The notes under the pieces: generated by a model
The model's database searches: none
Seen by the model: the letters and a program-made list of their open reading frames with translations, nothing else
Told to the model about the DNA's origin: nothing
Shown here: positions 3,337-46,332 of the stretch, one piece after another
How the letters are laid out: every line of letters starts with the position of its first letter
Position numbering within the stretch: the stretch's first letter is position 1
Assembly: GCA_000091205.1 (NCBI GenBank)
Contig: AP006488.2
From: Cyanidioschyzon merolae
Lineage: Eukaryota
DNA length: 64,000 bases
Reading direction: 5' to 3' (one strand)
Program-made: the position numbers and the translations under genes

Positions 3337-5520
3337 TCAGCAGGCAGCAGATATAACACTTACGCGAGCCTTCGTTAAAACACGTGCTGCACTCGTCCAA
3401 ATGTGATAGAGCCTTTCTGCATACGGCATGATACCCACAATACCCCCTGTGCCGAGCCCTGATGTCCATACCTTGCGCAGAGCATCGACCCGCGCAGGCC
3501 ACAACACTGCATGGGCCACGGCATGCGATGCGTACGTCCCGTAGCAGCTCACGAGAACACCGTCGACCGCAAGGCGCCCTGAGCGAGTCAACGGCGCATA
3601 GAGACCATTGTGCGTAACTAAAGTCTCGATTGCCACTACGGGGTCCGGCAGGTGCGCAGCAACGTCCAGCAGAGCGTCGCCAACGCGGATATCTTCCGCG
3701 AAAACTGCCACAACGGCGGTGGTACCCAACTCAAGGCTCCGACGTATGTGCTTCTGCTGCTGCTGCTTCTGTGAAATACACGAGAAAGCGGTCGTCATAC
3801 CGTAAAAGTCTCTAGAGTGTTCGATCATTCGATATACCAGATGCTGTCTCGTCAGACGCAGCTGCTTTCCGGAACGCGTCTTGATCGCAAGAATCTCTGC
3901 AGTAGCGCCGGCCTCGTTATGCAACCATCCTAGTACACTATCTTCGACCAGTTGCCCGCGCCCATTGACGCCCATTACGGCCATACCTGATCGAAGCTCG
4001 CTTATCTGCAGATGGTTGCCCAGACCATCGATGAGCACCGAGGCATCCGCGGGGAAGCAGACCGCAGAGCCTTCGCCTACAGCGGTCTGCGTCACATTTG
4101 TCGTTGCCGACGGTTCTGCAGTAACGGAGGGCGTCGGTGATGCCGTCGGAGTCGGTGTTGGTGTCGGCATAGGCGTCGGTGTTGCGATGTATAATGTGAA
4201 GAGATCGTTATAGCTACCGGAGCTGCCTTGACCTCCGAATAGAACCGGGTCGTTTTGATCGGTATCCCAAAGAACTGCACCGTATCGCGGAGGTGGAAGC
4301 GTTGTATTGCTTGTCTTGTTAAGCTCGCCGTAACTATATGCTCCATCCGTTGTATTGTCACCGTCTACCCAAGTCCATTCAAGACTCGTTATATTGAACG
4401 TCCACAGGTCGTTGCAGAAACCGGGTGAACTACCGCCGAAGAGATACAGGGTGTTCGTCGAGTCTGCAAATCCAGAAGAGCCAGCTCTGTACCCCGGAGT
4501 GTTGCTCGATGACGGCACTCCTTTCTCGCCGTATACTGCCCCATCCAAACCAACACTGTGATTTCCAGACATCCAAGTCCATTCTTTGGAGCTGATGTTG
4601 TACAGCCATAAATCATTGAGAAAGCCGCCATTTCCGTCAATCTGTCCATCACCGCCAAAGAGCCAAAAGTTCCCATCAAGGTCTCGCCACCATGTGGCTC
4701 CGAGACGTCCAGCGGGATAATTGCTCGGCGATGCCTGGCGAAACGTACCATAGCTTCCAGAGGGATTCTGCTGTTGAGTGCCACCTATCCAGCTCCATTC
4801 GTTGGTCACTGTGCTGTACTGCCACAAGTCACCGTAAAAAGGACCACTAGGATAAAATCCACCAAAGAGATAAAACTGGCCATCCAATCCAACCCAGGTC
4901 GCGGGTTGGAAACGAGCGCCAGGCGTGTTGCTTGAAGACGACTTCCCAAGAGGACCATATGTCGGGGGAACATTGGTCTTGCTGGATCCCTGCACCCAGG
5001 TCCACTCGCCCGACGATACATTATACATCCACATATCACTATAGCCCGAGTTCAAATTCCAGCCTCCATATAACCAAAGGTTTCCGTTGCTGTCACTCCA
5101 AGCAGCGGATTCCGTCCTCGAAGGCGGATAGTTGCTCTTGTTGGGAACTCCGAGGGAGCCGTATACCCCTCCAGAGTTGAGGGATGCAGAGCCTCCAACC
5201 CAGGTCCAAGAGAACGTGCTCAGATTGTAGTTCCAGAGATCACCGAAGACGTCTCTCAAGTCGCTGCCACCACCAAACAACCAGAGCACCCCGTCAGCGC
5301 CGGTCCAGAAGACCGCACCGTACCGCGCCGGAGGCACGTTGCTGGTGTTCCGCACACCCTGAACACCGTAGCTACCTGAACTGCCGGTAGAGTTACTGCC
5401 ACCGATCCAGGTCCATAAAAAAGTATCTTCGGAGGACAAAACTCCACGAACTGTGTGTGTGCCCGACACAACCAATACTATAACCAGGAGTCTCACAATA
5501 GAAAAATACCTTTTTCGCAT
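3337..5520 (-). CDS. Secreted Kelch-repeat (beta-propeller) protein with a Pro/Thr-rich linker and a C-terminal Hedgehog/intein-type Hint autoprocessing domain
   Basis: The 727-aa ORF is intact. Its N-terminus has a hydrophobic signal-peptide-like segment (MRKRYFSIVRLLVIVLVVSGTHTVRG). At least six repeats show the Kelch signature (LWLFGG ... NDLW/GDLW ... W.W). A PT linker (PTPMPTPTPTPTASPTPS) follows, then Hint motifs: 'G..AVCFPADASVLIDG' (Cys-1 block), 'TRQHLV' (TxxH) and 'LVTHNGLYAPLTRSGRLAVDGVLVSCYGTYASHAVAHAV' (C-terminal Hint block). Confidence 0.75.
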   Translation of the reverse strand: MRKRYFSIVRLLVIVLVVSGTHTVRGVLSSEDTFLWTWIGGSNSTGSSGSYGVQGVRNTSNVPPARYGAVFWTGADGVLWLFGGGSDLRDVFGDLWNYNLSTFSWTWVGGSASLNSGGVYGSLGVPNKSNYPPSRTESAAWSDSNGNLWLYGGWNLNSGYSDMWMYNVSSGEWTWVQGSSKTNVPPTYGPLGKSSSSNTPGARFQPATWVGLDGQFYLFGGFYPSGPFYGDLWQYSTVTNEWSWIGGTQQQNPSGSYGTFRQASPSNYPAGRLGATWWRDLDGNFWLFGGDGQIDGNGGFLNDLWLYNISSKEWTWMSGNHSVGLDGAVYGEKGVPSSSNTPGYRAGSSGFADSTNTLYLFGGSSPGFCNDLWTFNITSLEWTWVDGDNTTDGAYSYGELNKTSNTTLPPPRYGAVLWDTDQNDPVLFGGQGSSGSYNDLFTLYIATPTPMPTPTPTPTASPTPSVTAEPSATTNVTQTAVGEGSAVCFPADASVLIDGLGNHLQISELRSGMAVMGVNGRGQLVEDSVLGWLHNEAGATAEILAIKTRSGKQLRLTRQHLVYRMIEHSRDFYGMTTAFSCISQKQQQQKHIRRSLELGTTAVVAVFAEDIRVGDALLDVAAHLPDPVVAIETLVTHNGLYAPLTRSGRLAVDGVLVSCYGTYASHAVAHAVLWPARVDALRKVWTSGLGTGGIVGIMPYAERLYHIWTSAARVLTKARVSVISAAC

Positions 5521-6201: not shown

Positions 6202-7638
6202 TCATACTGAAGCACTTGCTGAGGCATGCGTCAAGGTCGACACCGATACCGACGCACTTGGAGACGCAGTTGCAGTCGCAATAACGGCACTCGGAGACCG
6301 TGTAGCACTAAACACCACACACTGCCTGTTGATGCACTCCTCGCCAGAGCGGCAGCAACGCACCTTGTTCACAAGGTTGTCCGAAGGCATCAGGTAGGTC
6401 CCGGACTGAACTGTAGGGTCCTTGCATACACAGAATGACGGCAACGGCACCTGTCGCTGCTGCTGCTGCTGCTGCTGTTGCACGGTATTGCTGTTGCTGA
6501 ACGGGTTTGACGTGCAGTTCTCCATCTCGGCGTTGCAGCGCTCCGGGCCGCACGGAATATACGTCGAGTTCGATACGTTGCCGGTCGTGCTGTTCAGCGA
6601 GTTCGAGACGTACCCATACGCCTGACAAACATACTCGGTAACCGGCTGGGAGCACTCGTTGCCGGGCCCCAGGCAGCAACCAGCCTCCAGACACTGCTGC
6701 GGCGGGTAGCTCGTGCGCTGCGTCCCGTGCTGCTCTCCGTAAAGGACCGTGTTCAGCAGACGCACAAACTGGTTATTGTTGATGTTATTGTTCAGCTGCT
6801 GGTTCTGATTCACCGCGTTCGTGCACGGCTGGCGCTCAAACTCGCCCACCGCGCACGTCTTCTCGGGCTGGAAGCAGTACGGGTTCGACGCAAAGTCGCT
6901 CTGCTGCTTGCCGTTCTGCACCCACTGGTTCTGCGCCTGCGAGTCGTAGCAGCAGCCCTGGGCATAGCACGTAAACTGGTTGATACCCGCGTTGCCGCAC
7001 GGCTGGCGCTGCGCTCCCGGTGACGGGCAGACGGGTACTGGTGCCTGCACCTCCTGCAGCGCTACAGAGGCCTGCGGTGCATGGTTGATGTCGTAGTAGC
7101 ACCAGGGTGCCAGGATGCCGTTCGCTGTGGGCTGCCAGCAGCATCCCGGTATCGCAGTGCACTCGTCGGGGTAGATGTAGCTCCAGCCGCAGGTGACGCG
7201 CTGCGTCACTTCAACAGCGCTGCACGCCGCTGAGACGCTCTTCAGGGTGCACGCGTTCGTCTGGGAGTTGAAGCAGCACCCGACTTGCTCGTAAGCGTCC
7301 TGGTTGATGCACTGTCCTGGAGATCCGCAGAGCTCATTGGAGCAGATGGGGGTAGGCGTCCGCGAAGTTTTTGGTGTTGGAGTAGGGAATGCTTTCCTCA
7401 ATGCAAACACATCATTGAGAAAGTCACTGCCGCTCGTGTTTATGTATCCAATTCCAACAAATACGATCGGATCAGTTCTACTAGTGTCCCAGAAAGCTGA
7501 TCCATAGCGAGTACTTGGTACACTATTCGGGCCTGACTCGCTCAATGCCCCATATACTGCTGGAGTATTCACTACCGAGCTTCCATTAATCCATACCCGT
7601 TGACCCAGTTTGATATCGAATACCCACAGATCGTTCAA
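6202..7638 (-). CDS. N-terminally truncated paralog of the Kelch protein carrying tandem trefoil (P-type)-like cysteine-rich domains and a polyQ tract; gene fragment or exon
   Basis: The 478-aa ORF has no ATG start; the first in-frame codon is TTG, preceded by a stop. Its N-terminus (NDLWVFD ... TPTPKTSRTPTP) parallels the last Kelch blade and PT linker of the 3337..5520 protein. It then carries trefoil-type motifs, for example 'CSAVEVTQRVTCGWSYIYPDECTAIPGCCWQPTANGILAPWCYYD' and 'CPSPGAQRQPCGNAGINQFTCYAQGCCYD...NPYCF'. A polyQ run (QQQQQQQQRQ) is present, encoded by (CTG)n on the plus strand. Confidence 0.45.
   Translation of the reverse strand: MNDLWVFDIKLGQRVWINGSSVVNTPAVYGALSESGPNSVPSTRYGSAFWDTSRTDPIVFVGIGYINTSGSDFLNDVFALRKAFPTPTPKTSRTPTPICSNELCGSPGQCINQDAYEQVGCCFNSQTNACTLKSVSAACSAVEVTQRVTCGWSYIYPDECTAIPGCCWQPTANGILAPWCYYDINHAPQASVALQEVQAPVPVCPSPGAQRQPCGNAGINQFTCYAQGCCYDSQAQNQWVQNGKQQSDFASNPYCFQPEKTCAVGEFERQPCTNAVNQNQQLNNNINNNQFVRLLNTVLYGEQHGTQRTSYPPQQCLEAGCCLGPGNECSQPVTEYVCQAYGYVSNSLNSTTGNVSNSTYIPCGPERCNAEMENCTSNPFSNSNTVQQQQQQQQRQVPLPSFCVCKDPTVQSGTYLMPSDNLVNKVRCCRSGEECINRQCVVFSATRSPSAVIATATASPSASVSVSTLTHASASASV
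6455..6478. repeat. (CTG/CAG)n microsatellite inside the coding region (polyQ)
   Basis: 'gctgctgctgctgctgctgttg' read directly in the sequence. Confidence 0.8.
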
Positions 7639-8281: not shown

Positions 8282-9196
8282 TCAGCCACGCTTTTCGCGG
8301 AAGAGGTTGCTTTCGGCGACACATCCCGGGAAAATCGCCACAGAGGTCACCCCGTCGCGGCCGTATCGATCACTGAGCGCCTTCATTGTCAACAAGTTCT
8401 CGGCTTTGGCGTCTTTGAAAGCTTTTGTGGGCTCAAACGGGCCACTTTCTACCATGTCCGTCGTCTGCGGATCAAGCCCCGCGGCTAGGCCAGATATATC
8501 CCCGAGACGAGCCTGCGGGGGGATCTTTCCCGGCAGCGAATTCGGCGAGTGGGTCTGAGTCGTCAGAAACACAATGTGCCTGCGCGATATTTTCATCTTC
8601 GGCAACAGCTCCCGACAGAGAAGCAAATGGCTCAGATGGCAAACCTGCATAGTTTCCTCGATGCCGTCCACCCTGAAACGCGGTTTCTTGTCCCGCGGAT
8701 GCCATATTGTGGCATTGCAGATCAGGGTATCCAGGTGATCGACGCGCGCCACACTTGACAGCTCTCTTACAAACTTCAACACAGAGGCGAAATCAGCCAT
8801 ATCACAATGCAGCACTGTATAGGCGTCCTTTGGAAGGTTTACGCTATTCGCTGCGCGTTCCGCCAGGTCGACGTCACGACTTGCCATGACGATGTGCCCG
8901 TTGCCCTTGTTGATCAGAGCGCGAGCTGCATACAGACCGACCCCAGAGGACGCGCCAGTGATCACGGCGATCTGCGACTGTTTCGGGCCCATACGAAGAT
9001 GCAGCGCGTGGTGCCGGCGCGCTACAGGCGAGCGCTGCACCGCCAAGGGAAGCGGATGCTGACAGTGGTGACAATGTCCAGCTGCGAAGCACCCATCACG
9101 TGCGGTACGTAGCGGGAACGGTGCTCGAGTTGCAGCGCGCGCGCGAACAATGTGTCTTTCCTGGTACAACGGGACAAAAACGAAAAGAGCTTGCAT
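8282..9196 (-). CDS. Light-dependent protochlorophyllide oxidoreductase (POR)-like short-chain dehydrogenase whose catalytic Tyr is replaced by Phe
   Basis: The ORF encodes 304 aa. It has the SDR Rossmann motif 'ITGASSGVG'. Blocks align closely to LPOR: 'YTVLHCDMADFASV', 'LICNATIWHPRDKKPRFRVDGIEETMQVCHLSHLLL', and the POR-specific loop 'GKIPPQARLGDISGLAAGLDPQ...'. The tail 'LLTMKALSDRYGRDGVTSVAIFPGCVAESNLFREK' also matches. The YxxxK motif reads 'FKDAK' where POR has 'YKDSK'. A 68-aa N-terminal extension may be a targeting peptide, or the start is the internal 'MGPKQSQ'. Confidence 0.7.
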   Translation of the reverse strand: MQALFVFVPLYQERHIVRARAATRAPFPLRTARDGCFAAGHCHHCQHPLPLAVQRSPVARRHHALHLRMGPKQSQIAVITGASSGVGLYAARALINKGNGHIVMASRDVDLAERAANSVNLPKDAYTVLHCDMADFASVLKFVRELSSVARVDHLDTLICNATIWHPRDKKPRFRVDGIEETMQVCHLSHLLLCRELLPKMKISRRHIVFLTTQTHSPNSLPGKIPPQARLGDISGLAAGLDPQTTDMVESGPFEPTKAFKDAKAENLLTMKALSDRYGRDGVTSVAIFPGCVAESNLFREKRG

Positions 9197-9579
9197 TTTC
9201 TTGGATTAGATTTCCTCTGGTGCAAAGCTGCTGAACGCGCCACCAACTAGAGACGTTCGCTCAAGCATGCGTATCCAGTCAAAAACCTCTTTTGCGTAGC
9301 TGCAAGAGTGATCGCCCGTCAATGGTCCAGAGTCTGACCCATATCTCCCGTAGACTGCATAGCGTTGAGCACATCTAGCACAAGTGCTCAATGTCTTTCT
9401 GAGAAACTAGGCAAAACTCCTATGCTTCCCATCAACAACCTCATCAGCAGTTAGTGCCAAGGGTTCCGCAGTGCTGCGCTCAGATATCTAAACGACCGTT
9501 CACGAACGTCGACGTGGCTCTCCGACGAATACCGTAGAGGAGGTATAAGGGAATATCCTCCGGTGGTATGTTATTTTGG

Positions 9580-9685
9580 AAGCGTCTGCACGTCAGTTGG
9601 AGACGTCATGTTTAGGGCGGGTCACTCGCCACTACCGTGCACCGCGGGCAGCAGCGTTTTTCTTTTCAAAAGCATTTTTTGTCGG
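9580..9685 (+). mobile_element. Solo 3'-terminal fragment of the Fanzor/TnpB-like element family (conserved right-end module only)
   Basis: 'cgtctgcacgtcagttggagacgtcatgtttagggcgggtcactcgccactaccgtgcaccgcggg...gcgtttttcttttcaaaagc' matches the conserved 3' ends of the copies at 13140, 22060, 28270 and 32620. No upstream ORF is present. Confidence 0.5.
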
Positions 9686-10665
9686 CTGTGTCTCTTCCGG
9701 GCTCGATGTATGGGTTAGTCTCCTGAAACTAATCTTATAGAGTAGATCAGAATTCAGTATGCTTTTTTTGGCGGGTTCCTCGATCGTTCCAGGTGAGATG
9801 CGTTGGTCAAGCGCTGTGCTACGTATGAACGCTCTATGTATGCTATGCCTCTACCAAGATCACAGGATCCGGGAGAGTAGCGGGCACCATAACTTGGACA
9901 ACGACGATAGCATGGAAATGACTTGAACTGCCATCAGTTCCAGAACATGACGCAGGATAGAAGCACAATTCAGGTCAGTTCCTTATTCCAGCGTCCGTGC
10001 CGCATGCATAACAAGCACCGGGATTAAACGTATATCCGTGTTCAGCAATCCTACCGTGCCTTGTTTGTTTACGATCAATACAACTAACGAAACTCTTCAA
10101 GGCTAGAGTGATGCGTACCTTATCCACACAAGTGTAAGCCGCAGAGAACGCTACGCTTTTGATAGAAGCATCACGGGGTATCTCGCCAGGCCCCAACATC
10201 CCCTTGTACGTCAGGTCGGTACGGCGATGGGCGGTAGCGTCAGCACCACCGCCAGAGCCTATGCCAAGAGATCATTCTACGTGAGTTTCCAATCTACGAT
10301 ACTTTATTCCAGCTGCAGTGCGGTGCGAATACGCATATGCCAAGGCGGTGTCGGACACGTGTCCTTCATGGATCGGTGCAGCGTCTCGCGCGGTGCACGC
10401 ATCGCGCTCAGGGAGCACGCCTCGGAGATCAGGTAGTCAACTGACACGACGCGCATGCCGCCGTTGAAGGGAAACGCGATCCTAGTAACGAGCGTGTTGT
10501 TCTAACAGAAAAAGTTGGATTTCCGTTGGAGTCGAAGCAAAGTACAATTTTTCAGTTCATTTTTGTTTCAGCCCTCAAACAAGTCTAGTCAAGTGCTTTC
10601 TTGCAATACATAATAGAAGGGTTCGAAGCTGGTTCTTTTTCAAAAATACCTAAAAAAGAGGAGCT

Positions 10666-13166
10666 ATGAAAAAGCAAGTCCACGATCCTGAAGCGCCATT
10701 GTCGCCGGCTGCCAGAAAAACAAATACAGTGCCGAGTCCCGACGAAGAGCAAAAGAAAAAGAAGCAAAGGGGGAGGCCCTATGTCGATCGCGGCAAGAAA
10801 GACGACTGTACGACGAGATAGTGTTGAACGCCTGACTTCTTAAACATATCAAGGATCCCTACAGGGAAAAGTTGCGAGACGCTATCGAAAACCGTGTCGA
10901 CTCGTACTCCAAGAGTCTTTTCAAGGCTTCGTCAGGACTGATGCATTTGGCGAGGGAGATGTATCGCGACGTGACGGACATGGCAACCATCGAGATTCCG
11001 GACGAGTTCTTCGACAAGACCTTTATTCGTCACCTGATGCATGGTACAGCGGGAACGTGGAGGGAAAACGTGCTAGTGCATGTTCTCCACGAAAACTTCG
11101 CGGAATTCCGCTTCGAGGGTGCTCGGTACAGCGGTGACTCGCATATTTACACATACGGGGCAATGAAGTTCATCACGAACCTGAAGAACCATTTGACAGA
11201 GAACCTCGAATGTTTCATGATACGCACCGCGTTTGCACTCTACCCGGGCATCTCTCGCAAGGGGATATGGTCGATTATCAATGGCATCACGAACGATCGC
11301 AAGCATGAAGGTGAGGTCGAATTCGTCGGCAAGAAGACGTCAAAAGGGAGCACGAATGAAGCTTCTGCAACCCGTGCGGCTATACAAGAGCACCGTGCAG
11401 TCTTGGGGCTGGTGAATCCAACAGACAAGATATCAAAGTTGGAGAAAGATAAGGAAAGATACTATCGCCTCTTCCTGCGGCATTTTGTGTTTCTGGACCG
11501 AGAGCTCGAACGCAAAGTGGAGATGAAGCTGAGTGAAGAGACAAATGAAGAGTGGGAAAGACGGAAGGCTTTCCTAATGGGGAAGCGCTTCGACGTGGTT
11601 CCGTTGTGCAACATCAAGGCACATTTTGTGACTATCGACTCCGCGGTCCTTTACGGCATCATAAAGGAGATCAGTGCGGAGTTCAATATTCGTAGGGAGC
11701 ACTTCACCGGCGAAAACCAGGAGACGTACTGGAAGAAGATCTTCGGTTTCAAACGTCTCAAAACGAGCAAGCAAAAGGTATTCGCTGGGATGATTGAAAC
11801 CGATGGAGTAAACGTGTGTGTACACTATCGGCGGCTGAAGCAAGATCGTCCAGTCCCACTCCCCGCTGCGCCCTCGATGAAGCATGAAGATGAGAATGAG
11901 TCGGATCCTGCCACGCAGGAGGTAGAGGATACTGATCTTGTCGTTGGCGTGACGAACGATGAAGATGAGCAGGAGGCTGGTCCTGCGACGCAGGAGGTGG
12001 AGGATAACGAGCTTGCCGTTGACGCAGCGGAGCATGAAGAAAACCAAGAGGCGGGTCCTGCGACGCAGGCGGCGGAGGATAACGACTTTATCGTTGACGT
12101 GACGAAGGATGATCATGGGAAGGAAGCGGATCCTGTGATGCAGGAGGTGCATGATGACGCCTTTATGGTTGGCGCGGCGAAGCATGAAGAAAACAAGAAG
12201 GTGGGCCCTGCGACCCAGAAAGTGCAGGATAAGGACTTTGTCGTTGGCGCGGACCCTCGGAATACGAATATCATTACCATCGCAGCACCGAAGCGTGCGG
12301 AAGATGGTACTGATGGTAACTTACGTCAGAAAGACATGCGTCTTTTGAGGTTCACGAGAGAGAGATACTATCGAGAATCGGGAATCATGAATGCGAGGAA
12401 ACAATTCGAGACTTGGAAGTCAGGAATGAAAGATCACCTGGAAGCTTCGAGCTAGGTGACGAGCCGAGGAGCGCACTTTGAAGCTTTTCGGAAAGTCATG
12501 GAAGGTCGCATGACGCACTGGGATACGCTGTGGAAGGAGTATACCAAGCCCCGGTGGGCTCGTTTCCGAATGAATTTGTATTGTGGGAAGCAGCGGGCGG
12601 TGGCGAATTTTTTCAATCAGTTGAATGCCTTGATGGACGATAACAGTCAGAGGCTCGTAGTAGCGTATGGGGCAGGGCGCTGGAACACTCAAAAAGGAAC
12701 TTCGCCAGCTCCAACGACGAGGGTGTACAAGGAGTGCGCACGTCGTTTCGTTACAATACGGGTAGACGAGTTCCGAACGTCCTATACTCACCATGAGCTG
12801 GGTTGTACACTTCAGAGGGTGAAGATGGAAAAGTACCAGAAGAGCCCTGAGGAAATAGCAAAGTACGGACCGCTGACGGAAGAGCAAATGGAAAGGAGGG
12901 CGAAAGTTCGTGGACTACTCGCATTAGTAAGTACAACCAGTGATGGCAAGAAACGGATGGATTTCGTGAACCGAGAGTTTAATGCCGCAATCAATATAAG
13001 GAGATTGGCGGTGCTAGAGAAAAGACCTCCAGAGTGGACAAGAGAGAACTTTATTGGACAATCACTCAAAGTCGATTTATATGAGAAAGAATTGGAATCA
13101 GTAGTAGGTGACCGGTCCAAAAAGGCGGCGAGGCGTCTCCACGTCAGTTGGGGACGTTTTGTCTAG
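10666..13166 (+). pseudogene. TnpB/Fanzor-like nuclease ORF of copy 1, disrupted: frameshift and TGA near the N-terminus and an in-frame TAG at 12453..12455
   Basis: Two adjacent ORFs (10872..12455 and 12456..13166) lie in the same frame and are separated only by a TAG. The sibling copy has GAG at that position. The N-terminal exon-like ATG at 10666 is out of frame with the main ORF, and a TGA lies in the continuing frame. The RuvC-III 'NAAINI' motif is intact. Confidence 0.6.
11898..12257 (+). repeat. In-frame tandem array (5 x about 69-72 bp) duplicating the acidic '[14 protein letters not shown]' segment that ends in the RuvC-I motif
   Basis: The protein repeats are '[25 protein letters not shown]', '[25 protein letters not shown]', '[25 protein letters not shown]', '[26 protein letters not shown]' and '[19 protein letters not shown]'. 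Copies 3 and 5 carry a single unit. Confidence 0.7.
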
Positions 13167-14246
13167 GGCGCGGTTTTCCCGCCACTACTGTACACCGTTG
13201 GCGTCGTTCGACTTTCGAGCGGCGTTTGGTGTGGCCGTGCGCGGGAAGACGTCCATCATTCCATCTCCTTCCGAGTCTCAAAGCCCATGCTTCTTCTCGG
13301 ATATACTGGTCGTTTCGTATACTCTATCGAGTGACCGTGCATGCCTTGCCGCATCCGCTCCAGTAGTTTAAACGCTTGTGCGGGGTGTACAAAGTAGGTA
13401 TGGCGCACGATACAACGTACGCAACGACCAGCATATCAGAGAGGAATCACGAGGAATGCAACGATAAGGCAGGATGCATCACGATAGACGCTTTCCCGAA
13501 AGACAATATCCATCTACCCCGCAATCTGGGATCCATGGTCCATGGAAACGTGCTGCTACTGGAAAGAAAAACGAACGGGTGTGCGCGGCTGCCGTCTGTT
13601 CAACGTAGTTTCGTATTTCGTTCTTTTCTAGGTGGTGTAACGGAACTGTCTGCGGAAAATGACAGAGGAGTCCGCGGTGGAAGCTCGGCGTGTATCCTGC
13701 GAGGATTCCGAGCCCGAGGGATCGCCTTCGGCAGCCGCGCGGTCAGAGCAGGATACCGAGACGCCCGTCAGCACGAACGCCACAGGCACGCGACTCAACT
13801 GGAACACGCAGGCACCTGCAGTGACGAACGACGGCTGGCAAACAGCAGCGAGCGTATGCTCTAGTTCCGGTTCTGCGCTTGGTGAAGCGTTCACTCCAGA
13901 CGCTGCGCCTTCGCACGTAGGTACTGGAGCCGCAGCTCGTAGTGTTATGGCGACTGCCTCGGTTGAGAACAGTGTTCACTCCTTATCTGAGTCACCAATA
14001 AGCTGGAAAACACGCTTGAATGACCTTTAGGAGCGTCTCCTTCCCTGGATTCCCGAGCGAATGGCTTCCTTTTTCTACCGTCAGGCAACGCGCTGGCTGC
14101 CGACTCTCGTGCAGCGACTTCGATCAGCCTACGCCAAATCGCTTGAACCCATGGACGCTGTCGTTCATCTCTACAGGGGCATTGTTCCGACTTTTGATCA
14201 TCTTCCCGCAGAGGGCCGGGCGCCAACACAGATTCTCGCCGACCTG

Positions 14247-14477: not shown

Positions 14478-14884
14478 TCCAGTTTTGATTCCATGTCAAC
14501 GTATTCGGTCTGTCGACCAAGAAAACTAGGCGACGCTGTCCAGTTACATACATATAAATTCATTAATATCCATATAAATTCCATATCTCTGTTTGCAATC
14601 AGGGACGTCGAGACTTTCCGCTGCCATGTTCGGGAGAAATGTCCGCTTTCAGCAGCCGAGATAACGAGATCGCTAGATGATTTTTGCAACGTGGCCCTGT
14701 TCCCAACCGCAGGTTTTTTGAAGTCGGATCACTACTGGAGCGCCGCAGCCGCCGGCGTTGCAGAACACTGACGCGCGCTTCGTTGAATGCTCGTTGACCA
14801 CGTCCACTGATACACGAACCTGAATACAAGCTTCGATACGATACATACTGAGCGGCTTACGAGTCATAACTTCATACCTCCAAA

Positions 14885-15560
14885 ACATGTCTACAACCCC
14901 TACTCGTGACGATAAGGATATTGTGGGAAAACGCTACGGTCTAGCTTGCCTGTCCTATCGTAAGCTACCACCTGTCGAAGGCGAGTACCCTGAAGGTGCT
15001 GCGCGGCTGGTGCTCTGTTGCATCAAGATCACCACCAAGGGAGACTCGCGTGCGTTTACCAAGTACCCATACACGGTGGATAATGGGTGGGTATGTTGTT
15101 GTGATTGGTGCGCTGCTTAAGAAATTTAGGCGGGGAGAGCACTTATACAACTATAGAAAAATCAAGTGCGTTCGGGGCTCTAGTGCGTTTCCACTTCAGA
15201 GCTTCTTTCTTCGAACACCGGCGCTACTGCTGCCGACGAGCCGGACGTTTTCCTCTGGAACGCGAAGCTTGAGCGGACTCCTCGAGGACTGCAGTGTCGT
15301 GGACTGGAAGTGATGATGTGCTCGTGTAGGAGTGGTATCCAACGCAGCGAAGTTCTTCGTTCAGCCGCGTCGCTCTAGCCTCATGCTATGCGGTGCGATT
15401 GTGACACTGCTTGACTGTGCCCTGCCCCAAGCGCTGAAGATTGCGTTCCCGCTCTGCACAGTTGGGGGCAGGACACCTGCACGAACTTGTTCCGCCCTCA
15501 CCGAAGGTCGTTTGCGTACTGGAAATGGAAAGTGAAGGATAGCTAGTGTCTGTATGCGGC
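14885..15560 (+). repeat. Inverted repeat pair, copy 1 (about 670 bp), carrying a conserved 77-aa Cys-rich small ORF (14887..15120)
   Basis: ORFs 14887..15120, 14996..15313 and 15332..15535 each have near-identical counterparts on the opposite strand at 22619..22852, 22426..22659 and 22204..22407. Confidence 0.7.
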
Positions 15561-16552
15561 AGACTACGTGTGACAGTTAAGCTGCATTCAGGAGGCCAGG
15601 GAGAGCCGCAAACATAAAAAAGACACAATGAGAAACAGACTGAAACGATTTGTCCTAAAACAACTGTCCTAAACCTTCCACACAGATCCCACATAAGAAT
15701 TCCGTTTTTCGGGATACACATTAAATGTGCCAAACAAAGCGGAAGGTTTCGGGTAACGTGAGAAGGAGCCCCACGACCGGGTCTTTGACAAATACGAACG
15801 TAGGGGTGGAACCAGTAGCACCATATGATGGTGAGATATTTGAGCAGACACCTGTCTGTCTTGAATCAACTCTGCAGGCACTGGCGCGAACCCTGGATCT
15901 AACCTCGAACTCGAGCTCAGGTTTACCTCCTACTTTAGTTTTTTCTTCAACTTTGGGGAAGTCTCGGCGGAGGTTTTGGAAGACGGCAGGCAGGTTGTTC
16001 GCGGTCGAAGGTGGAATAAGCGACTTACCCGCCTACATGTTTGGGGAGCGGATCCGAAGCCGTTGAAAGGGTCGTTAGTAGACTATATCCCGAGTGGTCG
16101 AGGGTTGCATCACGCGCCACGCAGCGTAACGGCCGCTTTCGAATCGACCCCGCCAGCTCGACTCCTAACACTGCGCTACCACTGCGGCAAGCACTCAATG
16201 AACGACTGGAGTGTAGAAGGCACTGGTGGCATGTGCGCTCACACACTCCGTGGCGGGTGCGTCTAAATCGACGGCACAACTCTGGAGCACCGCAACGCTA
16301 TTCCTAATCAATGACGAGCTACCACTCGATAGGTTTCGCATCGTGGAACATTTGCGGGACAGCCGCGAGACTGGACGATGCAAGGCACTTCCGGGAGCGC
16401 TGAGACGCCCATAGCCTGGCGTTGCGGGAGACACTACGCTCAGAGAACACAAATGCCTATAATAGTCTGCACATCCCAGGCTACAACAACGTTTGAACCT
16501 ACATACGCAGGCCCTACGGACAAGTTAACTTATTTATTTATGCACAGGTGGA

Positions 16553-20978: not shown

Positions 20979-21172
20979 CTCTCTAACAGAACTGGGAGCG
21001 TCTAGTCCACACGAGTGGAGAATTTAAACCTTTGAAGTAGTCTGCAGCGAACTACAGTACGACATTTGAAATAGATGAAGACTTGAGTGTGAGACGCCTG
21101 AAAGGCGAGCAGGGCAGAGCGCTCGCAGTCAAACAGAACGTTGAGATGCAAAGCGTGGTGCGCAGGTAAAGG

Positions 21173-22165
21173 TTGTCGTTGGCGCGGACCCGGAAACTCA
21201 AATATCGTTACCGTCGCAGTACCCAAGCGTGTGGCAGATGGTACTAACGGCACCTTACATCAGACAGACATGTGTCTTTTGAGGTTCTCGAGAGCAAGAT
21301 ACGATCGAGAATCCGGTATGATCAATGCAAGGAAGAAAATTGAGACATGGAATGCAGGAATGAAGGATCACCTGCAAGCTTTGAGCGAGGTGAGGAGCCG
21401 AGGAGCGGACTTTACAGATTTTCGGGAATTCATGGAAGTTCGCGTTGCTCATTGGGACGCGCTGTGGGAGGATTATACAAAGCCCAGGTGGGCTCGTTTG
21501 CGAATGAATCTGTACTGTGGGAAGCAGCGGGCGTTCGCCAACTTTTTCAATCAGGTGGGCGCCCTCAAGGAGATTGAAAGTCAGAGGCTCGTCGTAGCGT
21601 ACGGAGCAACGCGCTGGAAGACCCAAAAACGGGACTATGCCAGCTCCAACGACAAGAACGTACAAGGAGTGTGCACGGCGTTTCGCTGCGATACCTGCAG
21701 ATGAGTTTCGAACATCGTATACACACCACGAGCTGGGATTTACACTTCAGAGAGTCGAGATGGAAACGTGCCAACGAAGCCATGAGGAAATAGCAAACTA
21801 CGGACCGCTGATGGGAGAGCAAATGGATAAGAGAGCGAAAGTTCGTGGACTACTTGCGCTGGTGAGCGCAACCAAAGATGACAAGAAACGTATGGTATTA
21901 GTGAACCGAGACTTTAACGCCGCTACGAATGTAAAGAGATGTACGGTGACAGATAGAAGACCTCCAGAGTCGACAAGAGAGAACTTTGTTAGACAATCAC
22001 TCAAAGTGGAACTATATGAGAAACAGTTGGAAGCAGTTGTAGGTGACCGGTCCAAAAGGCTGGGAGGCGTCTGCACGTCAGCTGGGGATTTCTTGTCTAG
22101 GGCGGGCTTCTCGCCACTACTGTACACCGCTGGCGACAACGTTTTGCTTTTGAAAGGCGTTTTGT
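21173..22165 (+). mobile_element. Fanzor/TnpB-like element copy 2 (family A; 5'-truncated, begins at the RuvC-I 'VVGADP' segment; frameshifted)
   Basis: Homology begins at 'gttgtcgttggcgcggaccc'. ORFs 21141..21704 and 21637..22353 lie in different frames, with the same +1 insertion as copies 3 and 4. The 'VNRDFNAATNVKR' RuvC-III-like motif and the conserved 3' end are present. Confidence 0.7.
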
Positions 22166-22194
22166 TTCAGGGGTTTTTGCAGTATACAGACACT

Positions 22195-22860
22195 ATCTAT
22201 CCTTTACTTTCCATTTCCAGTACGCAAACGACCTTCGGTGAGGGCGAAACAAGTTCGTGCAGGTGTCCTGCCCCCAACTGTGCAGAGCGGGAACGCAATC
22301 TTCAGCGCTTGGCGCGGGGCACAGTCAAGCAGTGTCACAATCGCACCGCATAGCATGAGGCTAGAGCGACGCCGCTGAACGAAGAACTTCGCTGCGTTGG
22401 ATACCACTCCTATACGAGCACATCATCACTTCCAGTCCACGACACTGCAGTCCTCGAGGAGTCCGCTCAAGCTTCGCGTTCCAGAGGAAACCGTCCGGCT
22501 CGTCGGCAGCAGTAGCGCCGGTGTTCGAAGAAAGAAGCTCTGAAGTGGAAACGCACTAGAGCCCCGAACGCACTTGATTTTTCTATAGTTGTATAAGTGC
22601 TCTCCCCGCCCAAATTTCTTAAGCAGCGCAGCACTCACAACAACATATGCAGCCATCATCTAACGTGTACGGATACTTGATAAAGGCGCGTGGGTCACCT
22701 TTGGTCGTGATCTTGACACAACAGAGCGCCACTCGCCCAGCACCCTCAGGAAACTCACCCTCAACGGGTGGGAGTTCACGATAAGATAGGCAAGTTAGAC
22801 CAGTACGTTTTCCCACAATATCCTTATCGGTTGGCGTTTGCTTTTCGGGCATCTTTTAAA
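22195..22860 (-). repeat. Inverted repeat pair, copy 2 (reverse complement of 14885..15560), abutting the 3' end of element copy 2
   Basis: See 14885..15560. The 77-aa ORF 22619..22852 (-) reads 'MPEKQTPTDKDIVGKRTGLTCLSYRELPPVEGEFPEGAGRVALCCVKITTKGDPRAFIKYPYTLDDGCICCCECCAA', against 'MSTTPTRDDKDIVGKRYGLACLSYRKLPPVEGEYPEGAARLVLCCIKITTKGDSRAFTKYPYTVDNGWVCCCDWCAA' in copy 1. Confidence 0.7.
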
Positions 22861-25800
22861 AGTAGCAGATAATGATTCTGAGGCAAAGGTCGTGAAGTAG
22901 CGAGCGAAGCTTGTATTCAGGTTCTTGTATCAGTGAACCTCAACAACGAGTATTCAACGGGGCGCGCGTCAGCACTCAGCACCGTCGGCGACTGCCGCGT
23001 TCCACTGATGATGCGTCTTCAAAACACCGGCGAGAGCGTGTAGGCTGCCACGTTGCACACGCCGTAGCGCGCCTCTCGCCATGTCGTCATCTCGCCTGTT
23101 GCTGTAGGCGGACCCTGCGTCCCTAGCACGAAAGCGGAACGTCCCACCGTGATAGCCCACAAAGATCTAGTACTTTTTGGTATATTAATATATTAAATTG
23201 TACGTTATGAGTTCGCGCCTGTGGCGATCCCCGCAGCCTGTTCGCGAGGACTCTCAGTTGTAGGTACCCATGGCATCCTATCCTTATGTCAGATTAAAGT
23301 GGAGAACTCAGCTGCTCGCGCAGTTCCTGCCTTGAGATTTTTCCGCAATGGTTTTAGATCTCCAGTCTGTAGAAGCAAAGTGCAACAGTGCGGGCTCATG
23401 GAATGGGAAGCAGCTGCAGGAATCACGGACGCGCAACCGGAGTGGCTTTGTAGACCCTCTGCCGCTGGCATTCGTCACGTCACCGTCATTTGAATGATGC
23501 GCGGCACCCGCGAGCAAGGATTCATCACATAAAAGGCATCTTCTTCCACGACATGCGTACAAGCCTCTGCGCTTCTCATATTCCTTAGTGTGGCGTGCAC
23601 GAATCACTCGCATGCGCCAAGGTTCGATGCCTCTGTTTCAAGGCGACACTCGGGTGCAGCACTTCATGTCGTTGGATGGACGACGAAAAAAACCTGGGTT
23701 GAGGCCGTGACGACTCGTTCACAGACTCTCGCTGAAACGTCACGCAGCTTATCACTGCAAACAAGCAGTTTCGCTCGGGAAGCAATGCCACCTCTATGTG
23801 GGGCTATCGACGGAGCGGCACTCATTGGCAGTATGGTGCAGTTCCCGGAACATGCGCTCAGAGGCGCCCGTCTCTTTTCTGCGCATGGAAAGGGGTCCTC
23901 GACCCGGGCTTTACTCATCGCTGCGATGACTTTGAGTAGAGCGTGCGTCACTGCTTTGCGCGAAGTGAGCGAAGACAGATCGAGAGTTCACGACGTGCAC
24001 GCCGGACTGGGAGGTTCGTTGCGATACCTGTTCCTGTCTGGAGAGCATCGCCTTCGACGAGTCGTCTAGAGAAGGGAGCAGCATGCGCAGGCGTGTGTTG
24101 AGGGGAGCGCTCTCGCCGAGGCGATCGCCCAGCAGAAGCCCGTGAGCGTAGGTTACGGCAGCTGGTGCGAGAACGGAGCAGGGCACTGAGGTGAGGCTTC
24201 TGGACCCGCCACACACAGTTACGGAGCGTCGACGCGAGCGTTCACGTGTCAGCGACTAGCCGTCAGATGACGAAGTATGCTGGTGGCACGTGACCGCCAG
24301 ACCACAGCCAAGCGGCAACGCTGCGACGGGCGCACCGCAACAGAGTGGAAAGAAGGTGCACATGGCAAGCGAAGCGAAGATGGCAACTTTTGGCAGTGCA
24401 TGGAATGCCTAGACAAGAGTCGGCAGCTATGGAATCGGGGCCTGAACACCACCACCGCCAATATCGTGCGACTGCTATGAACAGCGCTGGAGAGAAAGGA
24501 GAGACCAGCGTCGTTTAAAGAAGCCGAAATATTAGTGCATACGTCTTTGTCCGTGGATCTGTTCAGTTCTATGTAACTCGAACGCACCTGTCAGTGGAAC
24601 AAAAACGTCCCACGACCATGTCGTATACATGAATATCTACCCGCAGACGCCTCCCTGCCATGCTGGACCGCGCCCTGCTGTCGGCTCCAGCTTCTTGTTG
24701 TATACGGAGACCCTGAGAGACTGCCCCGCAAGTCAGATCGCGTCAGTTCCTCGGGTAAAGTCTTTCGCTCTGCACATTATCTGATAATGATGGCGACGTT
24801 GAGGTCTCGGTCAACGAACTCGTTGCATTTATTGCCGATGGTGGAACCTCGCTTTGCGAAGACGCATCGAACTCGTGCTCTCTGTGCCACCAGAGTTTCG
24901 TAAACGTACCGTCGAGCAAACACCTTTTCCTGGCTATCTCTCATCGTCATCGTCTTCGTTGTCCTCATCTGTTGCTCCTCTTCGATTGGTGGTCAGCGGG
25001 AAGAGGATTTTTTCATTTTGTTTGTCGAACTCGGCAATGATGGTCCTCCGGTATCCTCGACTTTCACGTCCATACCATTGCATTCTATTTTTTTGAGAAC
25101 GAACGCACTTGGAACGCATCTGCTGTTAACCGCGAAAAACCACTTGAATACTATACGAGGCTATTGGAACACGAATGCATTGAAAGACTAGACCTTGCTG
25201 CCACTTCAACCCTAACACGTCTTGTCCGTTAGAGCGACACGTTCATGATCAGGATCGCGTTTCCCTTCAACGGCGAGATGTGCGTCGTGTCTTGTTCTTT
25301 TTCTGGTCTGAGAAAACCTATCCATCGACCGTGGATCACGGATTGCGGGATGGATATCGGCTTTCGGGAAAGCGCCCGTCATGGTGCACCCTGCCTCCAG
25401 GTTCCATTACTTAGACTCCCTTTCCGCTAGACTGGTCGATTTGTGCGTTCGTTCGTGCGCCGAGCCTGCAGTGAGCACCCGCCGCAGCGCTTGTACCGCT
25501 GGAGCGGATGCTGCACAGGGACAGAACAGCGTAGGCGTACCACCGAATGCGCTGCGACCAGGGCGACGCCCAGACGCTGCCTGAGCACCCTTAATGCCGG
25601 AATAAACCGCTTCGGGGATGAGTTGGTCAGATATCACTAAAGCACCTGCCATTGGGTGGGGGAAGCATGACGCAATTACCCAGAAGACTCGTCCGGCTCA
25701 CGGGGCCTTCCGCCTGGAGCGCAAACATTCTAACATGCGGAAAGCTTCTCCCCCTGTCAACGTTTAGCGTAGAGGGGGAATGAAATCGTTACATCGTTTG

Positions 25801-25929
25801 TCGTGAATCGTGAGTCTCTGTTCTTTGTTCTAAATAACGCTGTCGAGTTGTGCACCTCCATATTTGAAAGGCATGAAATACAATGCGCTTTTCACAGTGG
25901 AAGAGAAACGTAGTCCTGACCATTCGTTG

Positions 25930-28350
25930 ACGTGTTGTTCTACCGGAAAAAGTTGTATTCGCGTTGGAGTCGAAGCAAAGTACAATTTTTCAGTTCATTT
26001 GTGTTTCAGCCCTCAAACATGTCTAGTCGAGTGTTTTCTTGCAATATATAATAGAAGGATTCGAAGCTGGTTCTTTTTCAAAAAAAATAAAAAAAGGAAA
26101 GTCATAGGAAAGCAAGTCGGCGATCCTGGAGGCCCAGGATCGCCGGCTGCCAGAAAAACAAATACAGTGCCGAGTCCGGACGAACAGCAAAAGAAAAAGA
26201 AGCAAAATGTGAGGCCCTACGTCGAAGGCTGCAAGAACGACAACTGTACAACGAGATAGTGGTGAAAACCTCTCTTCTTGGACATATCAAGGATCCCTAT
26301 AGGGAAAAGTTGCGAGGCGCTATCGAAAACCGTGTCGACTCGTAACCCAAGAGTTTTGTCAAGGCGTCTTCCGGACTGATGCATTTGGCGAGGGAGATGT
26401 ACAAATACGTGACGCACATGGAAACGGTCGACATTCCGGACGAGTTCTTCGACAAGACGTCTTTTCGATACCTGATGCATGGTACAGCGGAAACGTGGAG
26501 GGAAAATGTGCTAGTGCATGCTCTTTACGAAAAATTCGTGGAATTCCGATTCGAGGGTGCTTGGTACAGGGGTGACTCGCATATTTACACATACGGGGCA
26601 ATGAAGTTCATCACGAACCTGAAGAACCATTTGACAGAGAACCTCGAATGTTTCATGATACGCACCGCGTTTGCACTCAACCCGGGCATCTCTCGCAAGG
26701 GGATATGGTCGATTATCAATGGCATCACGAAAGATCGCCAGCATGAAGATGACGTCGAATTTGTCGACAAGAAGACGTCAAAAGGGAGCACGAATGAGGC
26801 TTCTGTAACCCGTGCGGCTATACAAGAGCACCGTGCAGTCTTGAGGCTGGTGAATCCAACAGACAAGATATCAAAGTTGGAAAAAGATAAGGAAAGATAC
26901 TATCGCCTCTTCCTGCGGTATTTTGTGTTTCTGGACCGAGAGCTCGAACGCAAAGCGGAGATGAAGCTGAGTGAGGAAAAATGAAGAATGGGAAAGACGG
27001 AAGGCTTTCCTAATGGGGAAGCGCTTGGACGTGGTTCCGTTGTGCAACATCAAGTCACATTTTGTGACTATCGACTCCAGATCCCTCACGACATCACGAA
27101 GGAGATCAGTGCGGAGTTCAATATTAGTCGCGAGGACTTCACCGGCGAAAACCAGGAGACGTACTGGAAGAAAATCTTCGGTTTCAAACGTCTCAAAACG
27201 AGCAAGCAAAAGGTATTCGCTGGGATGATTGAAACCAATGGAGTAGCCGTGTGTGTACACTATCGGCGGTTGAAGAAAGATCGTCGAGTCCCACCCCCCG
27301 CTGCGCCCTCGACGAAGCATGAAGATGAGAATGAGTCGGATCCCGCCACGCAGGAGGTGGAGGATACTGATCTTGTCGTTGGCGCGGACCCCGGACACAT
27401 CATTATCATCAACATCGCAGCACGGAAGCGTGTGGCAGATGGTACTAACGGCACCTTACATCAGACAGACATATGTCTTTTGAGGTTCTCGAGAGCAAGA
27501 TACGATCGAGAATCCGGTATGATCAATGCAAGGAAGAAAATTGAGACATGGAATGCAGGAATGAAGGATCACCTGCAAGCTTTGAGCGAGGTGAGGAGCC
27601 GAAGAGCGGACTTTACAGCTTTTCGGAATTTCATGGAAGTTCGCGTTGCTCATTGGGACGCGCTGTGGGAGGATTATACAAAGCCCAGGTGGGCTCGTTT
27701 GCGAATGAATCTATACTGTGGGAAGCAGCGGGCGTTCGCCAACTTTTTCAATCAGGTGGGCGCCCTCAAGGAGATTGAAAGTCAGAGGCTCGTCATAGCG
27801 TACGGAGCAACGCGCTGGAAGACCCAAAAACGGGACTATGCCAGCTCCAACGACAAGAACGTACAAGGAGTGTGCACGGCGTTTCGCTGCGATACCTGCA
27901 GATGAGTTTCGAACATCGTATACACACCACGAGCTGGGATTTACACTTCAGAGAGTCGAGATGGAAACGTGCCAACGAAGCCATGAGGAAATAGCAAACT
28001 ACGGACCGCTGATGGGAGAGCAAATGGATAAGAGAGCGAAAGTTCGTGGACTACTTGCGCTGGTGAGCGCAACCAGTGATGGCAAGAAACGTATGGTATT
28101 AGTGAACCGAGACTTTAACGCCGCTACCAATGTAAAGAGATGGACGGTGACAGAAAGAAGACCTCCAGAGTCGACAAGAGAGAACTTTGTTAGACAATCA
28201 CTCAAAGTGGAACTATATGAGAAACAGTTGGAAGCAGTTGTAGGTGACCGGTCCGAAAAGGCTGGGAGGCGTCTGCACGTCAGGTGGAGACGTCGTGTCT
28301 AGGGCGTGTTTGCCACTACTGTACACCGCTGGCCGCAGCATTTTTCTTTT
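25930..28350 (+). mobile_element. Fanzor/TnpB-like element copy 3 (full-length mosaic: family-B-like 5' half plus family-A 3' half; multiple frameshifts)
   Basis: The 5' end is 'cgtgttgttctaccggaaaaagttg', followed by a TATA 'tatataatag' and then the MHLAREMY... N-terminal half, about 90% identical to copy 1. The RuvC half is near-identical to copies 2 and 4 ('[32 protein letters not shown]...'). ORFs 26379..26984, 26988..27905 and 27838..28302 lie in three frames. Confidence 0.7.
26045..26054 (+). promoter_or_regulatory. TATA-box-like sequence (TATATAATAG) upstream of the element-internal ATG
   Basis: Read directly in the sequence. The equivalent position in copy 1 reads 'cataatag', about 50 bp before 'atgaaaaag'. 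Confidence 0.3.
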
Positions 28351-29242
28351 GAATGGCGTTTATTTTTTAGGCGACGACCACAAGCCTGTTCCCTAGTCAT
28401 CGGTCGTACGCGCGACTCCTCGGAAGTTTGGCTATAATCAGCGCGCCCCTCTAGCAAAACAGTCGAGTCGGCACCAGATGCGCCCGAGAGGCCCCGCGCC
28501 GACCTTCAACCTATTCTCGCTAACCAAAAGTTGAATACCTGCTCTGCAGCTGTTCGATCAGCTACCTCGACAGAGTAGAGGTCGATAAGCGCTCTTTCAC
28601 GATGAACTACCAGGTCATGCGCAAGTCACGCACCCTACGCTTTCGTGCTATCCGCAAAACCTGCTATCTTCCAAGCGTAGCGGCTTGCGGACCATCAAGG
28701 CAACTATGCGCTGAAATTCCGCCTCTTGTACCGTTGAACAACTTCCCTGAATGCTTCGCGCCATCGAGAAGCATATTCATGTATCGTGCGCCTGCAAGAA
28801 GCGGTTCCAACACTTCATACCGACTCAGTGGGTCCTCGACCGCAATCAAGTTCAGATTTCCGGACACAGCGTCCGCCTACGCATGAAAAACGGCCTCCAA
28901 GTCTGTTGTCGCGTGCTGTTTTTGAGGCAATGAGGAACCGCGGATGCATTGCTCGTCCACTGAGCAGTCGCGTGCGCCAGTATCGAGGACGCGTGCCGTT
29001 CTCGCAGCAAAAGAACCAGTCTGTCGGAGCGTCTCCTACTATTCCACGATACTCCAGCGGAAAAAGAGCGACTCTTCGCCCCTGTCGACGAATTGGCGCC
29101 CCGGGCGACGCTTTACGCACTTCGAGCGCTCCATGAGAGCAACCGTGAATCCCAACTGTCCCAGTTTACGATCATCGCTGGCACGGTTCAAACCGCAGTG
29201 CCCCGCCAGTTAGCAAGTTATGTCGTGAGATATTCGGAGGAA

Positions 29243-46237: not shown

Positions 46238-46332
46238 GCATACACGCAAACACGCAAACACGCAAACACGCACACACGCACGCACACACGCAAACACGCA
46301 CACACGCATACACGCACACACGCACACGCATG
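46238..46332. repeat. Compound microsatellite (CACGCAAA / CACGCACA)n
   Basis: 'acgcatacacgcaaacacgcaaacacgcaaacacgcacacacgcacgcacacacgcaaacacgcacacacgcatacacgcacacacgcacacgca'. Confidence 0.85.

Follow-up and report, generated by a model that had tools for sequence, protein, structure and literature searches.

A family of repeated elements found in a 64,000-nucleotide (nt) stretch of the Cyanidioschyzon merolae assembly GCA_000091205.1 (contig AP006488.2; the whole stretch is hereafter called the window) is best explained as a family of Fanzor1 elements whose right end carries an omega-RNA-scaffold module, and a solitary copy of this right end, located at 9574-9692 on the plus strand and lacking any open reading frame (ORF), is probably its decaying relic. 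According to this interpretation, the last ~107 nt of the element make up the right-end module, and its sense transcript would serve as the omega-RNA scaffold, composed of a 7-9-base-pair (bp) stem GGCGUCU/AGACGUC, a small GGCG/CGCC hairpin that holds the stop codon, a conserved linker CCACUACUGUACACC and a long terminal hairpin rich in G.U pairs, which runs with its 3' strand to the element end; the next 15-20 nt of flanking DNA would then act as the guide. The solitary copy would be an orphaned module, left by an old deletion or rearrangement and now drifting like the surrounding non-coding DNA. An earlier note on this DNA, made from the sequence letters, had pointed to a conserved element terminus of roughly 100 nt with a hairpin at 9580-9685, and had proposed it as a candidate guide- or omega-RNA scaffold or transposon right-end module. 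Homology and anatomy make the right-end and scaffold interpretation well supported, and by analogy with characterised systems the module may be transcribed and bound as omega-RNA.

The Fanzor1 gene and the terminus of the element

Full-length elements (11 complete elements are available) are 3.0-3.4 kb long and contain a left end, a leader sequence of ~0.8 kb and a single Fanzor1 gene; as this gene is the sole one, the element is non-autonomous. The product, of about 760 amino acids (aa), has readable RuvC motifs (GADPxNTN, VDEFRTS, and NRDFNAAINI). The C-terminal half of the ORF has 256 close homologs, the contigs fetched for several of them being of JGI metagenome origin, and a family profile search retrieved 1404 cluster representatives, many of 600-700 aa. 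No Pfam family scored above the cut-off with the window ORFs or with their close and distant relatives, a sub-threshold match to the Cas12f1-like TNB family being the sole one, and a profile of the close family gave no match to PDB sequences. Since Pfam is blind to this protein, its identification is based on homologs, family profiles and a structure model. A profile of 69 full-length relatives, whose own matches to the family of the window have E-values of 1e-110 to 1e-43, matched the PDB Fanzor1 proteins 9cf0 (PpFz1, 1e-20), 8gkh (SpuFz1, 1.6e-12), and 9cer (GtFz1, 2.4e-7). AlphaFold modeling from a shallow 40-sequence alignment was unusable (pLDDT 37), and a deeper alignment was used instead, giving for the relative P0123, which is not a window copy, a model with pLDDT 87.7 and pTM 0.86. 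When this model was submitted to Foldseek, seven Fanzor1 structures (SpuFz, GtFz, PpFz) came on top with E-values of 1e-16 to 2e-15 and TM-scores of 0.53-0.72, while Cas12f and Fanzor2 were far behind (1e-4). Judging by these profile and structural matches, the repeated element is a Fanzor1 element, which agrees with the TnpB/Fanzor-type gene suspected in the earlier note, and the family is apparently undescribed. A literature search revealed nothing linking Fanzor to cyanidiophyte red algae. One more feature of the Fanzor1 ORF is a 75-nt tandem repeat, encoding an acidic stretch of 25 aa and located between the last WED-like strand and RuvC-I, with five units in the copy designated c1 (11876-12252) and one in the copy c2 (27310-27385); the number of units varies among the metagenome homologs.

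Six copies of the terminus are present on the plus strand of the window, starting at 9579, 13130, 22064, 28266, 32613, and 56623, the last of them being more diverged than the others. Five end the copies of the ~3-kb repeat, and the sixth is the solitary one, so that the conserved terminus and its ORF-less copy, both claimed previously, do exist. The pattern ACGTC-N7-GACGTC has 11 matches in the window vs. 1.44 expected, a number reached in none of 100 shuffles. The consensus previously quoted for all copies is exact at 28266 and 32613, but the others are 60-85% identical to it.

The limits of the terminus and the constraint acting on it were determined from 80 related loci on metagenome contigs, which yielded 97 termini (82 distinct); the conservation profile was calculated on 74 distinct ORF-linked copies. 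As a reference we use c1 (10421-13236, plus strand), an element without the first ~700 nt of the full one, with an ORF at 10872-13166 and its right boundary taken from the conservation profile. The start of the terminus lies ~35 nt (~11 codons) ahead of the stop codon; its end coincides with the element boundary, from which (c1 coordinate ~13237) the identity of the flank falls to 0.25. Mean column identity at codon positions 1, 2, and 3 is 0.85, 0.87, and 0.73 in the ORF, and 0.75, 0.80, and 0.79 in its last 11 codons, where codon periodicity is gone. Beyond the stop codon, the non-coding block CGCCACTACTGTACACCG has an identity of 0.83, the 7-nt loop immediately ahead of this block (the loop of stem 2, see below) 0.39, and the third-stem region 0.60. 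The terminus holds positions under a constraint that is not protein-coding. The suggestion of a right-end module is borne out by this overlap with the last ~11 codons and selective conservation, as well as by the structure predicted on the sense strand. As to the span of the module in the solitary copy, the sequence given earlier for 9580-9685 was correct, but the module ends further, at ~9690-9692, the equivalent position in c1 being 13236.

Predicted structure of the terminus

Minimum free energy (MFE) folds of the well-preserved copies contain three stems and have z-scores of -3 to -5. The c1 terminus (13130-13236), which scores 109.7 bits with the covariance model, is predicted to fold with -52.1 kcal/mol (z=-5.14), and none of 200 shuffles was as stable. 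Stem 1, GGCGUCU/AGACGUC (13130-13160 in c1), has 7 bp and is extendable to 9. Stem 2 (13164-13187) is a GGCG/CGCC hairpin, in the lower part of which the stop codon UAG (13164-13166) pairs with CUA. Stem 3 (13191-13233) is a hairpin of 12-19 bp, and its 3' strand (GGCGUUUGGUG and variants) extends to the element end. The sequence of stem 3 occurs in at least two versions, CGUUCGA-CUU-UCGAACG and AACGUUUUUC-UUUU-GAAAGGCGUU, together with several idiosyncratic long variants, and nearly all of them fold as a hairpin at the same place: the mean z-score of the segment is -2.05, with 49% of copies below -2, vs. +0.1 to +0.4 and 0-5% for the ORF controls. The apical pair of stem 2 flips across the family (G-C 33 vs. 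C-G 19-22). In an alignment not fitted to any structure, 85% of the cells of stems 1 and 2 are paired, which is above 500 of 500 shuffles and is due mainly to one stem-2 pair.

The hairpin ACGTC-7 nt-GACGT, singled out in the earlier note, fares differently. Its 5-bp stem, described as preserved, is perfect in the solitary copy and in those at 28266 and 32613, but it contains a G.T pair at 13130 and is lost at 22064 (GATTT) and 56623. Among 76 distinct copies it shows no compensatory change and covariation not exceeding the shuffled level; in the unfitted alignment 77% of its cells are paired, 23% unpaired, and no double change is seen. Moreover, it competes with the 7-9-bp stem GGCGUCU/AGACGUC, which is preferred in single-sequence folding. 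Covariance and folding analysis gives three-stem folds for the well-preserved copies, with some compensatory changes, but no support for this hairpin.

The sense strand is predicted to be more stable than the antisense one by 8.3 kcal/mol (64 of the 74 copies), and at several positions G.U pairs outnumber all others. Both features of the modeled folds argue for a structure formed by RNA or, at least, by the single-stranded top strand.

The solitary copy and the explanations of the terminus

The solitary copy is clearly related to the ORF-linked termini: with the nhmmer profile built from the six window copies it scores E=1.1e-25, with the covariance model R1, built without it, 61.8 bits (E=1e-11), and its identity to the ORF-linked termini is 79-84% across ~100 nt. 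Upstream of 9574 no sequence similar to the Fanzor1 ORF was detected by blastn, tblastn, and six-frame hmmsearch with the family profiles, and nhmmer found no left-end motif anywhere upstream of it in the window. The copy is situated upstream of both an adh_short gene (by 380 nt) and c1 (by 730 nt). Its candidate stem 1, used by the MFE fold, occupies 9582-9606 (GCGUCU at 9582-9587 with AGACGU at 9601-9606), a span that also includes the competing hairpin (ACGTC at 9590-9594 with GACGT at 9602-9606). Stem 2 follows at 9613-9634 (UAGGGCGGG-UCA-CUCGCC-A-CUA), with a relic stop codon TAG at 9613-9615, then the conserved block at 9629-9645 (CCACTACCGTGCACCGC, two mismatches to the family consensus CCACTACTGTACACCGC), and a degraded stem 3 of the version designated A at 9640-9690 (GCGUUUUUCUUUUCAAAAGC), all on the plus strand. 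Stems 1 and 2 are intact, whereas the 42-nt stem-3 segment has an MFE of -5.2 kcal/mol vs. -13 to -19.6 kcal/mol in intact version-A copies; the z-score of the whole module is -1.3.

Homology to the ORF upstream of the terminus is absent in 5 of the 97 termini, namely that at window position 9579 and those of the loci L005, L029, L032, and L081. L005 is the window locus itself (98% identity), and the other three are homologous loci of 81-87% identity, which share the adh_short gene, the solitary copy in place, the 730-nt spacer and a c1-like Fanzor copy. No further independent ORF-less copies were found by nhmmer in 1.07 Mb of related sequence or by the covariance model in 0.92 Mb thereof, this sample being biased to Fanzor-containing contigs; within it, the solitary copy is one independent event. 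When the four homologous loci are compared with one another, stem 1 has an identity of 0.85 and stem 2 of 0.76; the conserved block and stem 3 both stand at 0.65, and the flanks at 0.71-0.85. The block so highly constrained in the ORF-linked copies (0.83) is here among the least conserved segments, and the solitary copy is no better conserved than the neighboring non-coding DNA. The fact that the block is kept tightly in ORF-linked copies and decays freely once detached is in favor of a module that functions in its context only. The simplest reading of the solitary copy is that of an old fragment drifting neutrally. Fragments truncated at either end do occur nearby (c3, c4, and those at 24622-24653 and 13347-13568 on the minus strand). 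The remnant proposed in the earlier note is therefore in line with the lack of an upstream ORF match and with a decay like that of the neighboring non-coding DNA, but nothing points to the solitary copy functioning alone as a working stand-alone guide gene, the other possibility considered there.

Comparison of window positions 9100-10560 with L029, L032, and L081 revealed that the loci group differently along the alignment and that their solitary copies have differing stem-3 versions; these mosaic relationships suggest, as far as alignments can tell, that haplotypes or paralogs have undergone recombination or gene conversion. L029, L032, and L081 do not have the right flank of c1 in common with the window. 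We also considered whether c1 might have the solitary copy as its left-hand direct repeat and rejected this, as such a repeat is absent from most elements and the spacer at 9690-10400 is a co-duplicated flank.

Several observations weigh against our interpretation. First, the covariation is of modest extent and found mainly in a single stem-2 pair and in stem 3; the best values (double changes in 23 of 29 pairs vs. 10.6 in shuffles; covariation of 0.179 vs. 0.128 shuffled, with 0.03-0.08 in slid controls) come from an alignment fitted to the model, and the relatedness of the sequences inflates the shuffle test. RNAalifold recovered three invariant pairs and almost no structure from an unfitted global MAFFT alignment of 78 sequences; when given a seed of 20 sequences, it favors a long-range helix of GGCGUCUGCA with UGUACACCGY (89% paired, no covariation), a predicted pairing as compatible with the data as stem 1, which leaves the 5' part of the fold ambiguous. 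Rfam 15 gave no match at the gathering threshold and none at E<=10 on 13050-13300, the presence of a Fanzor omega-RNA family in Rfam being unchecked. Second, all five ORF copies of the window are disrupted: c1 has one in-frame stop (12453-12455) and a D>E change in RuvC-III (NREFNAA in place of NRDFNAA), and c2-c5 have frameshifts and stops; the RuvC residues D, E, D are retained in the metagenome homologs. Third, the left edge of the solitary copy (9574-9579) is at most ~5 nt from the 5' base of stem 1, which is unexpected for a random deletion breakpoint. Finally, the module is conserved approximately as well as the coding sequence and not above it, so that DNA-level roles such as recombinase or transposase binding are compatible with it.

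The latter point leads to an explanation which we consider unlikely, namely that the terminus is conserved purely as DNA, providing a site or hairpins for a mobilizing enzyme supplied in trans, and that the solitary copy is a stray right end. The module stops exactly at the element boundary, left and right ends share short T-rich and GACAACGTTT-like blocks, and the limited covariation would be natural in this case. However, G.U-rich pairing, markedly stronger on the sense strand, is unexpected for duplex DNA sites, and the module reaches into the coding sequence as omega-RNAs do; besides, the corresponding region is the omega-RNA in every characterized Fanzor1 (PMC10432273, PMC10711439, PMC11423790), and the DNA and RNA roles are not mutually exclusive.

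For the solitary copy itself, it is quite improbable that it represents a working "ghost"-type omega-RNA gene, producing a guide in trans for Fanzor proteins made elsewhere. ORF-less omega-RNA loci are known in other Fanzor hosts (PMC10432273, PMC10530073), and the intact stems 1 and 2, the retention of the copy in four homologous loci and the coincidence of its 5' edge with the start of stem 1 are what such a gene would be expected to show. On the other hand, the ~1 Mb of related sequence yields a single independent event, with no left end or inverted-repeat partner, its conservation does not exceed that of the flanks, the block most constrained in the real copies is the least conserved here, and stem 3, which would abut the guide, is degraded. 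We give very little credit to a variant of this idea, in which an exapted or processed-omega-RNA-derived orphan guide-RNA gene, beginning right at the first scaffold stem, is kept beside adh_short at one location in several haplotypes or paralogs, its fixed guide acting in trans to a Fanzor1 encoded elsewhere.

It is hardly credible that the conserved 3' region is a termination, polyadenylation or stability signal in the Fanzor mRNA's 3' untranslated region: its location at the 3' end of the gene and the U-rich runs in version A of stem 3 would fit, but version B and others keep the hairpin having no U-rich run, and the constraint starts inside the coding sequence and halts exactly at the element end. 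Least probable of all is an origin of the solitary copy from RNA, i.e., reverse transcription and insertion of a processed omega-RNA, which would explain the start at the first stem and is reminiscent of TnpB-type nucleases processing their own transcript into the omega-RNA 5' end (cited in PMC10711439), but inspection of the alignment of the four homologous loci showed no poly(A) tail or target-site duplication, the 3' edge is indistinguishable from the scaffold end, and other fragments have arbitrary breakpoints.

Other copies, genomic setting and relation to known systems

Besides c1, the window contains four copies of the element on the plus strand. The copy c2 (25299-28372) is full-length, with a left end, a frameshifted ORF and a terminus at 28266-28372. 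The copies c3 (21162-22173) and c4 (31727-32719) consist of the 3' ~1 kb alone, with termini at 22064-22173 (stem 1 mutated) and 32613-32719, respectively. The copy c5 (53508-56745) is full-length and degenerate (~70% identity), and in its divergent terminus (56623-56745, 19.5 bits) stem 2 is expanded (GGCGAGC...GCUCGCC). The minus strand carries two more fragments of the Fanzor1 gene, both highly degenerate, at 42773-44773 and 24622-24992; the latter retains the first ~13 nt of the terminus (GGGAGGCGTCTGC), followed by a breakpoint. An inverted 5' fragment of another element, including the left end, is located at 13347-13568 on the minus strand, ~110 nt past the right end of c1, so that the two are either nested or abutting tail-to-head.

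The left-end motif TTTTCTCGATGCCAAAACGTTT...GATCCCAGATTGCGGG was found by nhmmer at 53510-53578 and 25299-25369 on the plus strand and at 13494-13568 on the minus strand. The left end is sharp, the onset of homology being at 53507-53520, and the full-length elements start at window positions 25299 and 53508. Inspection by eye of the 11 elements with both ends revealed no clear terminal inverted repeats or target-site duplications; short T-rich and AACGTT-type blocks are shared by the ends. In TnpB and Fanzor systems, the target-adjacent motif is located upstream of the left end, which is where it is to be expected here, and not 3' of the right end, as supposed earlier. In some copies the right-end GGCG is followed by TTTGTTTCCAGGGG, resembling the left-end start TTTCTTTCCAG or TTTGTTTCCA (window 22150-22178, L056 at ~1725-1745, and L029 at ~3885-3905), and TTTTCTTTT(C)GA is common to the left end and the loop of the version-A stem 3. 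These may be traces of right-end-to-left-end junctions, derived from a circular intermediate or tandem insertion.

Two other element types were considered and rejected. A Helitron 3' end (an end at CTAG/CTRR ~10 nt past a hairpin) does not fit: CTAG does come after the ACGTC/GACGT hairpin, but conservation runs ~70 nt beyond and the TAG is the stop codon. A LINE-like series of 5' truncations might be seen in c1, c3, c4, and the solitary copy, all of which keep the 3' end; the loci were, however, picked via the C-terminal protein region, and 3'-truncated fragments exist as well (L002 and, on the minus strand, 24622-24653 and 13347-13568, the last with a left end).

The window looks eukaryotic; its host ORFs (Kelch+Hint, Trefoil, adh_short, DHHC, PPDK, and TruB) are long and intron-free. 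An exact look-up of the window adh_short protein found no record, and a tRNA scan and Rfam search of the window gave no matches. The 727-aa ORF at 3337-5520 (minus strand), which has Kelch repeats and, at its C-terminus, a Hint (hedgehog/intein-type) module, adjoins the Trefoil ORF at 6202-7638 (minus strand). Another repeat family is represented by a 701-nt inverted repeat (14861-15561 and 22178-22878, 89% complementary), one arm of which begins ~5 nt past the right end of c3. A (ACGCAAAC)n-like microsatellite occupies 46220-46347, and three units of a 56-nt tandem repeat are found at 35585-35804.

Relatives of the Fanzor1 protein are encoded in 352 JGI metagenome contig stretches from several metagenomes, many of them from the Yellowstone hot-spring sample Ga0078972. 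Such abundance, as judged from contig sequences, implies that Fanzor1 copies are numerous in some hot-spring eukaryote that is uncultured or unidentified. As a transposon fragment the solitary copy is ordinary, and its main use is that of a neutral comparator. The broader gain is modest and consists in a large Fanzor1 family, apparently undescribed, of which hot-spring metagenome contigs hold hundreds of copies, and in the definition of a proposed ~107-nt omega-RNA scaffold, which overlaps the stop codon and for which a boundary is given. If an intact member proves to be active, the Fanzor of a hot-spring eukaryote would be of interest in the search for compact, possibly thermostable, RNA-guided nucleases, and the proposed scaffold/guide junction is a starting point for testing such a nuclease.

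The proposed scaffold may be compared with the omega-RNAs (fRNA, reRNA) of SpuFz1, GtFz1, PpFz1, and SfAV Fanzor1. The SpuFz1 omega-RNA consists of a 75-nt scaffold and a 14-15-nt guide and spans the 3' inverted repeat, that of GtFz1 overlaps 17 codons, and the region encoding Fanzor1 omega-RNAs in general is the 3' end as far as the right end (PMC10432273). The Fanzor1 right-end RNAs have three stems and absorb the terminal inverted repeat and target-site duplication into the scaffold (PMC10711439), and the first stem-loop is of 7 bp in all three solved Fanzor1 omega-RNAs, while the remainder varies (PMC11423790). Like these RNAs, the module described here is located at the gene's 3' end on the sense strand, overlaps the last codons and runs to the right end, is predicted to be multi-stem (the known scaffolds are of ~75 nt or more), and would use flanking DNA as the guide. 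The 7-bp first stem, suggestively shared with the solved structures, is a resemblance rather than a test. The module has no detectable sequence similarity to the known omega-RNAs and differs from them in that its predicted scaffold of ~107 nt includes the stop codon in stem 2 and a long G.U-rich terminal hairpin; clear terminal inverted repeats and target-site duplications were not found here by inspection of the ends. The TnpB omega-RNAs of IS200/IS605 and IS607 likewise overlap the 3' end of the nuclease gene, end at the right end and have a guide read from the flank; however, these are prokaryotic elements with a known TnpA, the protein encoded here clearly belongs to the Fanzor1 branch, and the pseudoknot/triplex architecture of TnpB omega-RNA is not seen in the predicted folds.

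As an ORF-less copy of the right-end region, the solitary copy resembles the 134 "ghost" loci of Spizellomyces punctatus, in which the omega-RNA region and the two inverted repeats are retained (PMC10432273), and the 20 extra fRNA copies of Chlamydomonas reinhardtii (PMC10530073). The Spu-1 ghosts are, however, numerous, and have a conserved body of ~550 nt with a well-conserved omega-RNA region, whereas the solitary copy stems from a single event, lacks a left end and is not conserved but decaying, and in these respects it is not a ghost locus. It is closer to ordinary transposon fragments such as solo ends and truncated copies, being isolated, non-coding and subject to neutral drift at the rate of its surroundings; what distinguishes it from them is that it matches a structured module almost exactly.

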